This document shows, one piece after another, positions 42,295 to 43,250 of a stretch of DNA of 64,000 nt. A program made the position numbers and the translations under genes. This DNA is from Chara braunii. Taxonomy: Eukaryota > Plantae > Charophyceae. The notes under the pieces are model-generated. The model was not told the DNA's origin. It did no database searches and saw only the letters and a program-made list of their open reading frames with translations. Position 1 is the first letter of the stretch. Each line of letters begins with the position of its first letter. Location: the NCBI GenBank assembly GCA_003427395.1, contig BFEA01000044.1, forward strand, positions 2,548,448-2,612,447. Reading direction: 5' to 3'.

Positions 42295-43250
42295 AAGGCT
42301 GGGAGGTCCCCATAAGTTTGGGGAGACTCAGTGCTTTGTTTATTTTGAATTGTGTGGAGCGTCAGACCATTCTATAAGTTTAGGTGGTCTAATTGCTCTG
42401 GAAGTTGGGAAGTCCCCATAAGTTTGGGGAGACCTAGTGCTGTGGGATTGCCTTAAGAACCAGACTGTTCTATAAGTTTAGGTGGTCTGATTGCTCTGAC
42501 TTGCAAGGGCTAATTGTGTTTGACTTTTTCAGGAACCAAGTGCGTTCTGTAAGTTCAGGTGTCTTAGTGGCCTTGTTTATGTTGGGTTTTCTTCTGTTTG
42601 TTTGGTTCTGAACGAGGAGGTCTGAGCCGTTCTATAAGTTTAGGTAGCCCAGTTTCTTCTTGCTTTATTTTGGGAAAATGAACTTGGCAAAGGGCAAGCC
42701 GTTCTGTAAGTTCAAGTGGTCTAGCCCAATGCCACGCACAACTTTGATCAAAGAGTAACGAATCGGACACATAGTCAGACTGTTCTGTAAGTTCAGGTGG
42801 TCTGACTCAAAGCCCGCACATGTTGGAACCCAAGGTTATAATTTGACTATATTTTATTATTATTCTACCTATGAACAAGCTAATCAGACTGTTCTATAAG
42901 TTTAGGTGGTCTGACTATAGCTTATCACAACCTGAAGAGAGTATAATTAAGAGTATAACTGAAGGTAACATGGGCCGACTGAGCATTGTTTCTAAGATGA
43001 ATGACTCAGTCCTACGCCCGCTTTGAAGATTAAGTTCAGAGAGGTATATATAATCTGGCTACTTAAACAATTCATGGCGACTAGAATGGTCTAGTTGTAT
43101 GCCCAAAGAAGAGAAAAGTTGTTGTGCCCTATGTTTGTGTATATCTTGGCTAAGTTTGACACATTCCATAAGTTTGGGTGGTCTGACTTTAGGCCTGGCT
43201 AAGGTAAGGTTCATTCCATAAGTTTAGGTGTCCTAACCCTATACCTTATG
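42295..43250 (+). repeat. Array of about 12 stem-loops with TAAGTT loop (consensus core cagactgttcta-TAAGTT-taggtggtctg)
   Basis: Loops at about 42313, 42375, 42419, 42473, 42550, 42635, 42707, 42788, 42897, 42993 (taagat), 43169 and 43219. Upper stems cccca/tgggg, tcta/tagg, tctg/cagg, tcca/tggg. Confidence 0.9.

Follow-up and report, generated by a model that had tools for sequence, protein, structure and literature searches.

Plant retrotransposons commonly contain family-specific tandem arrays, whose function is given as unknown (PMC11963269). Ty3 elements of the Retand/Tat and Ogre groups carry such arrays with units of 8-100 bp, again with function unknown (PMC11963269, PMC6431247). The LTRs of Sireviruses hold several hairpin-capable palindromes each, which are family-specific and for which turnover in reverse transcription has been proposed (PMC4728375), and VANDAL elements contain short tandem motifs in the same orientation, often intronic, that diverge together with the subfamily (PMC5735166). 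How LTR retrotransposons choose the RNA for packaging is little known (PMC6844567).

The hairpin array described here resembles all three of these array types. It belongs to a repetitive element of Chara braunii, which we analysed in a window of 64,000 nucleotides (the whole stretch of DNA under study). Literature searches on the family and on hairpin arrays in LTRs listed no description of the family; a name in a repeat library may exist, and the giant element is apparently undescribed.

Boundaries, content and abundance of the element

The window contains two complete copies and one partial copy, all on the plus strand. Copy B (38370..45971) measures 7602 bp including 181 N, runs from TGTCGGCGC to GCGCTCGACA and is without a conserved ORF. 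Copy A (11969..22503) measures 10535 bp, including a nested insert and local duplications, and the two together give a known size range of 7.6-10.5 kb. Copy C (5264..5634) comprises the 3' end only, without the array, and is followed by CTGT. Self-BLAST identified A and B as one element, with blocks of 64-78% identity and about 72% overall. Both start with TGTCGGCGC, finish with GCGCTYGACA and have TG...CA termini with an imperfect terminal inverted repeat of about 10 bp (TGTCGGCGC compared with the reverse-complemented end, TGTCGAGCGC in B and TGTCAAGCGC in A). A matching 4-bp target duplication flanks both complete copies, CCGG in the case of B (38366..38369 and 45972..45975) and GCGC in the case of A (11965-11968 and 22504-22507). 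The left CCGG of B lies within a unit of a 92-bp satellite, and because this unit has a single CCGG the length of the duplication is fixed at 4 bp.

The satellite itself has about 40 units, is split by copy B (35827-38359 and 45972-47136) and adjoins a 91-bp satellite of different sequence (34627-35575). The nested insert of A (about 12380-13340) carries GC-rich subterminal motifs and a (CAAT)n tract and is absent from B. Local duplications at 19890-20180, 20381-20699 and 45174-45232 lie beside N positions or gaps in A and B and are probably in part assembly artefacts. Elsewhere in the window, two other elements were found at 1-3540 and 48454-58476. One is a broken Ty3 element of chromovirus type with SH3 and chromo domains, and the other has a gag remnant and 270-bp LTRs of 99.6% identity. 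The only named match of a neighbouring chromovirus-type ORF (one of two matches) is a Chara braunii protein with 58% identity. An inverted duplication of about 100 bp (3540-3850) interrupts the chromovirus copy, and a hAT-like DUF659 ORF lies at 28856-30166.

Several non-coding parts of the element are conserved. The central block of B (41767..42031, plus strand) is 77% identical to A and 73% to the metagenome copy L003, and ends with a putative splice donor at 42030. A structured block forms the 3' end (45525..45971, plus strand) and bears an outward-facing donor-like GAG/GTAAGT at 45783. A further donor-like site lies on the minus strand just right of the array (43326..43339) and is present too in the metagenome copies L004, L005 and L006. 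The second, non-hairpin repeat (43515..43851, plus strand; motif CTACGGGAAGCGCTGCCGAAATTT, 2-4 copies per element) is among the best-conserved parts of the family, ahead of the hairpin array. Its 24-nt motif recurs with a spacing of 85-270 bp, at 43515-43851 in the window, 1029-1466 in L004 and 4020-4224 in L003, and may be the true DNA-binding site.

These additional copies were obtained by scanning metagenomes with the second-repeat motif, which yielded five loci, four of them genuine copies; the fifth, L007, was dropped as a match of 26 bp only. Since the search motif lies outside the array, the loops of these copies were not preselected. L003 contains an entire array of 18 units, L004 has 8 visible units, L005 one unit with the loop TAAGAT, and L006 is a B-like copy. 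The same motif had no match in the genome contigs and viral contigs, the central-block motif none in the metagenomes, and the 5' end of the element none in the genome contigs or in the nine loci. A single match to the unit pattern in the viral contigs (L001), without similarity to the window, was dropped as chance.

Comparison of A with B and with L003 revealed no conserved reading frame, and none of the six element ORFs has a Pfam match. Longer proteins containing the ORF at 44743-45042 were absent among 21 candidates, which is weak evidence, and neither search yielded a protein partner for the array. The three copies contain neither a VANC-like or other gene nor a trace of a transposase. Rfam models gave no match at gathering score in the window and chance-level matches only in A and B, and ARAGORN found nothing.

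The variable left part of the element holds rRNA fragments in both orientations, which are too short for the Rfam models and were identified by BLAST to Rfam-confirmed loci. They comprise an antisense 28S fragment in A (14511..14585, minus strand, 87% identity to LSU rRNA), a degenerate antisense 28S fragment in B (39411..39452, minus strand) and a sense 18S fragment in A (17108..17184, plus strand, 81% identity to SSU rRNA). As the antisense 28S fragment is common to A and B, it was captured before the two copies split. A further rRNA-like piece (15682-15728) is 85% identical to a locus, L009, that is not confirmed by Rfam. Also in the left part of B, 36 nt at 39150-39186 match an expressed stranded transcript with 5 differences (155 and 387 reads in the RNA runs X5 and X6) and are possibly a captured host fragment.

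Abundance was estimated by matching the reads of two DNA runs to the window at 80% likeness. Summed depth was about 11-20 on unique parts, 1e5-5e5 on the conserved blocks and 2e4-8e4 over the array; because summed depth is not a copy number, we state abundance only as thousands of copies or more. The family is thus very high-copy, and the lower depth over the array shows that it is more subfamily-specific than its flanks.

Anatomy, turnover and selection of the hairpin units

The array occupies the same position in all six copies that cover this part of the element. In B it extends over 42295..43240 (plus strand) and consists of 12 units, which agrees with the number of about 12 in an earlier note on this DNA; in A it extends over 18320..19625 (plus strand) with 18 units. 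Loops in B lie at 42313, 42375, 42419, 42473, 42550, 42635, 42707, 42788, 42897, 42993, 43169 and 43219, and the units are 44-176 bp apart. A typical B unit has a 6-nt loop on an upper stem of 4 bp, which a bulge containing G-T pairs separates from the lower stem; the consensus unit occurs exactly at 42461 and 42885. Units are 40-60 nt long with bulges, and nearly every one has its own paired arms of 10-20 bp with a retained bulge or internal loop. TAAGTT was proposed as the loop throughout B and holds for 11 of the 12 units (15 of 18 in A), the exception being TAAGAT in unit 42993. The hexamer occurs 13 times in 42295-43250 as opposed to a mean of 0.54 and a maximum of 4 in 2000 shuffles. Its reverse complement is absent from the B array, and all loops have the same orientation, with no inverted loop in 60 units.

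All four closing stems listed before were recovered, namely cccca/tgggg (2 units), tcta/tagg (4), tctg/cagg (2) and tcca/tggg (1), but in the last three the outer pair is a G-T wobble and not a Watson-Crick pair; this outer T-G pair is found in 12 of 15 B and L006 units. B is also not of one homogenised type, as had been assumed: the cccca/tgggg units with loops 42313 and 42419 (42295..42440, plus strand) form a second type that groups with unit A18930 in the unit tree.

The loop is a mark of the subfamily rather than a universal constant, and it is able to switch. In L004, which is 82-84% identical to B in the flanks and closer to B right of the array than A is (0.84 as against 0.72), TAAGTT is absent from the eight visible units, which have TACTGT (4), CATGGC (2), TACCGT (1) and CATGGT (1). 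In L003, 16 of 18 units have TAAGTT, closed as a 5-nt and not a 6-nt loop. At flank identities of 70-78%, the presence of TAAGTT in A, B and L003 is in itself not significant (about 0.18 per pair by our own arithmetic). The idea that loop and fold are constrained across all subfamilies, with arbitrary loops or unpaired stems elsewhere as evidence against it, is therefore retained for the fold only: the L004 loop differs, whereas the stems are paired everywhere. The two loop classes of L004 (TACYGT and CATGGY) alternate within one array (L004 45-700), and TACYGT could pair with the loop CATGGT via G-U pairs in a possible kissing interaction.

Concerted evolution by subfamily is supported. The nearest neighbour of a unit belongs to its own subfamily in 54 of 60 units (L006 pooled with B), compared to a mean of 14.9 and a maximum of 29 with shuffled labels, and in 52 of 60 with the loops removed. 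The set of 60 excludes A19906 (in a local or assembly duplication), the weak or truncated B hairpins 43031 and 43078, L003 3053 (no stem) and the deviant L006 units 179 and 272, which were kept in the alignment of B with L006. Positional orthologues resemble their own array (0.66 in A, 0.55 in L003, 0.77 in L004) more than one another (0.41-0.48). Homogenisation is nevertheless loose, with identities of 0.58-0.74 within arrays, and one of its routes is block duplication, as L003 holds a duplicated block of 7 units.

An orthologous pair of units had been offered as proof that A and B were homogenised independently. Its flanks are indeed present at 18789/18835 in A and 42961/43007 in B, but neither unit has TAAGTT (TAAGCT in A, TAAGAT in B), and the B unit (42975..43016, plus strand) has an L004-type stem in place of a B-type one. 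With 0.44 identity to the other B units, 0.70 to L004 units and 0.81 to its L004 orthologue, unit 42993 is the one that escaped, so the pair fails as an argument for independent homogenisation. The unit is either a relic missed by the turnover of B or a patch gained through recombination.

Within subfamilies, both loop and fold are constrained. Between the duplicated halves of the L003 block, none of the 41 loop columns is changed (a further column is deleted), compared with 84 of 375 elsewhere, and between B and L006 1 of 29 compared with 110 of 495. Pooled, 1 of 70 aligned loop sites changed, where 11.9-16.0 changes were expected from three base and CpG controls (p < 1e-4). Linkers change at about 20% of sites, and upper stems change as often as linkers yet remain paired. 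Pairs 3 and 4 of the L003 stem take CG, TA, AT, GC and TG. Among 17 L003 units (the eighteenth, which has a deletion, was omitted), 85% of cells are paired, none of 500 shuffles reaches the covariation score, and the true register gives 0.53 compared to 0.10-0.25 for slid registers. Stem pair 1 of B is AT in 8, GC in 5 and GT in 1 case, and the B and L006 stems show changes from A-T to G-C and from T-A to C-G with a G-T intermediate. As the units are related, independent covariation events are few, about 5 by our own count. The majority letter reaches a frequency of 0.96-0.99 in the loops and 0.49-0.68 in the lower stems of A, B and L003, the latter with a near-invariant 9-mer around the loop. 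L004 is the exception, with 0.75 in the loop and 0.97-1.00 in the upper stem.

Concerted evolution with loop and fold constrained, together with compensatory changes in the closing stems, had been regarded as the strongest internal sign that the array is functional and not neutral. Template switching, however, can make and maintain stems and double changes without selection (PMC8794818), and compensatory stems taken by themselves are therefore a weak argument for function. The argument for selection is instead carried by the constraint on the loop, the uniform orientation and the retained bulges, and on these grounds selection on the array is supported. The same evidence bears on a neutral minisatellite, in which slippage and conversion would homogenise the units and template switching would repair the stems. 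The block of 7 units in L003, the deviating loop of L004 and the known effects of template switching (PMC8794818) all suit such a process, which in turn does not account for loops that hardly change beside linkers that do, for the retained bulges, or for an array kept in one orientation and one position in every copy; we regard it as already disfavoured and very improbable.

Strand, transcription and class of the element

Folded as RNA, all six copies and all four unit groups favour the plus strand; with DNA energies, neither strand is preferred. Among 13 changed upper-stem pairs, 9 are paired in both states on the plus strand and 5 on the minus strand. The mismatch counts do not withstand a composition control: on a strand rich in G and T, G-T exceeds A-C (83 vs 34) with p 7e-6 against a 1:1 ratio but p 0.38 against shuffled arms, and isolated mismatches (28 vs 16) give p 0.10 and p 0.87, respectively. 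A fixed loop with variable arms fits the read-out of a single-stranded hairpin.

The lack of significance against shuffled arms is in line with a second explanation, in which the array serves as a landing strip in double-stranded DNA, where an activator or anti-silencing protein would bind sequence-specifically in the manner of VANC in VANDALs; the motif would be selected and the arms kept by template switching. Dense motifs in one orientation, an intron-like non-coding region by a putative two-way promoter and switching by subfamily correspond to the VANDAL pattern as given in the excerpts of PMC5735166, and the near-invariant 9-mer of L003 fits this explanation too. A DNA motif, however, needs no paired arms of 10-20 bp with a retained bulge in nearly every unit, and the three copies lack a VANC-like or other gene. 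We consider the landing strip rather unlikely and RNA the likely form in which the array acts.

In the RNA run X5, depth over the central block is 32.5 on the strand read as plus RNA and 1.0 on the other, an assignment that assumes the usual stranded protocol. The depth rises at the central block, with no pile-up of starts or ends there, and falls to about 2 behind the donor at 42030 and over the array. Eleven X5 reads leave the element sequence exactly at this donor and continue into DNA absent from the window, which we read as splicing. In X6, both strands are about equal over the central block and the array, and the opposite strand is 2-3 times higher to the right. Almost all RNA reads come from other copies, as 0 of 472 (X5) and 59 of 8070 (X6) are 99% identical to B. 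Counts of GTRAGY are 19 on the plus and 5 on the minus strand in the right part, and 11 and 19 in the left part. Donor-like sites hence point away from the centre in both halves, and this sequence pattern suggests a two-way promoter near the centre of the unit.

The class of the element was addressed at its ends. Beyond the 3' terminal letters, 149 DNA contigs agree at 0.34 per column and 43 X6 reads at 0.44, with a flank consensus that begins with xCGx; for the 5' end the agreement is 0.51 among 85 X6 reads, which likewise end in xCGx. As the flanks disagree beyond xCGx, the majority of copies stand alone, inserted at CpG-centred 4-mers. The 3' flank consensus contains no TGG primer-binding site, and neither end revealed a primer-binding site, a polypurine tract or an internal domain, in data where shared sequence is collapsed in contigs and the ends are crossed by few reads. 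Two loose-end motifs from read mapping had no match in the window. Because contigs collapse a shared internal flank, free-standing insertions also fit solo LTRs. The layout of an internal pair of short LTRs (TRIM/LARD) was rejected, as there is no direct repeat between the two ends, and so was a CRISPR-like array, as the linkers are mutually related and duplicate in blocks.

The insertion sites recall Ginger1, for which the excerpted description gives TGTNR ends and 4-bp target duplications containing CG (PMC2836005). The element could accordingly be a non-autonomous, Ginger-like (integrase-type) DNA transposon with an array that would function at the DNA level, through cruciforms or as sites for proteins. 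The ends TGTCG fit TGTNR, both complete copies have matching duplications with no shared flank found, the captured rRNA pieces fit Pack-type elements, and the CpG-centred targets (CCGG, GCGC, xCGx) resemble the Ginger1 preference for CCGG or CCGT (PMC2836005). Of the duplications, CCGG of B conforms to CCGG or CCGT/ACGG, GCGC of A does not, and the read flanks are xCGx. Ginger1 is described with terminal inverted repeats of 40-270 bp and an integrase-like gene (PMC2836005), in contrast to the repeat of about 10 bp and the missing transposase here, and a passenger DNA element needs neither conserved internal RNA-like blocks nor outward-facing donors; we rate this origin as improbable. An LTR is favoured by the short att-like ends, by non-coding internal blocks that every subfamily conserves, by the structured 3' block and by the outward-facing donors, and we infer with modest confidence that the unit is an LTR rather than a DNA transposon. 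Ogre LTRs measure 1.9-6.5 kb in the excerpted account (PMC6431247), and as an LTR the unit would exceed this range.

A possible role of the array and comparison with known systems

Retroviral packaging signals sit behind a splice donor and are retained only by unspliced RNA. The reading that we tentatively prefer, with slightly less than even confidence, is that the unit is a giant, non-coding solo LTR and its array an RNA signal that acts in cis, is under selection, lies just behind a splice donor and would be bound by a protein for packaging or export. The promoter near the centre would fire both ways, and the plus transcript would start near the central block. With the array just behind the first plus-strand donor, it would be lost from spliced transcripts and remain in the unspliced genome RNA. 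There the loops would recruit a protein encoded by the element, likely Gag, in many copies, which would mark this genome-length RNA for packaging or export. New unit types would spread through slippage, block duplication and conversion during reverse transcription, and the loop type would co-evolve with the subfamily's own protein, so that the hairpin tag likely lets each subfamily's protein choose its own genome copy.

A host partner was weighed as well, namely RNA machinery of the host for which the hairpins would be a substrate or decoy, be it in the production of small RNAs, in the control of splicing or through an RNA-binding protein. The palindromes in Sirevirus LTRs are reported to fold into hairpins and to be hotspots of siRNA (PMC4728375), and donor-like sites flank the array on both strands. 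The stems are short and bulged, though, and a fixed host protein would not favour a switch of loops between close subfamilies, which leaves this explanation with a very low probability. The packaging signal can also be extended to a bolder scenario, which we hold to be doubtful: a streptophyte-alga retrotransposon with the longest LTRs described so far, in which 12-18 hairpins form a loop barcode by which Gag packages its own unspliced genome, and the rewriting of whole arrays at subfamily splits reflects a packaging arms race among co-resident elements.

With its thousands of copies and four or more unit types, in which the constraint on loop and stem can be measured, the family amounts to a natural mutagenesis series. 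If the packaging reading holds, packaging specificity and co-evolution would be directly testable, new orthogonal pairs of hairpin and protein would become available, and the family would be a major unannotated component of the algal genome with LTRs beyond the Ogre range.

Compared with the known systems, the array differs from each in particular respects. The Sirevirus palindromes, as excerpted, have conserved arms with a variable central base and lie upstream of the promoter in an LTR of 1.3 kb (PMC4728375), whereas here the loop is fixed, the arms covary and the array is seemingly downstream of the transcription start in a unit of 7.6-10.5 kb. VANDALs are Mutator-like and encode VANC, which binds double-stranded DNA (PMC5735166), in contrast to an element with no gene, a 4-bp duplication and TG..CA ends; hairpin covariation is not described in the excerpted account of VANDALs (PMC5735166), and the stems here covary. 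Retand arrays are placed by the excerpted source mostly between pol and the 3' LTR, beside TRP28 antisense ORFs, and in flowering plants only (PMC11963269), whereas the present array lies inside a TG..CA unit and the element has no match to pol or TRP28. The 5' UTR of Ty1 contains dimerisation and Gag-binding elements (PMC6844567), and the proposed likeness to these and to retroviral packaging signals is a structured RNA near the 5' end, behind a splice donor, that is bound by Gag. Ty1 and retroviral signals consist of a few non-repeated hairpins or a pseudoknot, as opposed to 12-18 repeated hairpins with subfamily-specific loops and putative binding. Taken together, our analysis shows that the array is real, selected and subfamily-coded, and that it represents a variant of the cis-arrays of retroelements with a proposed mechanism.
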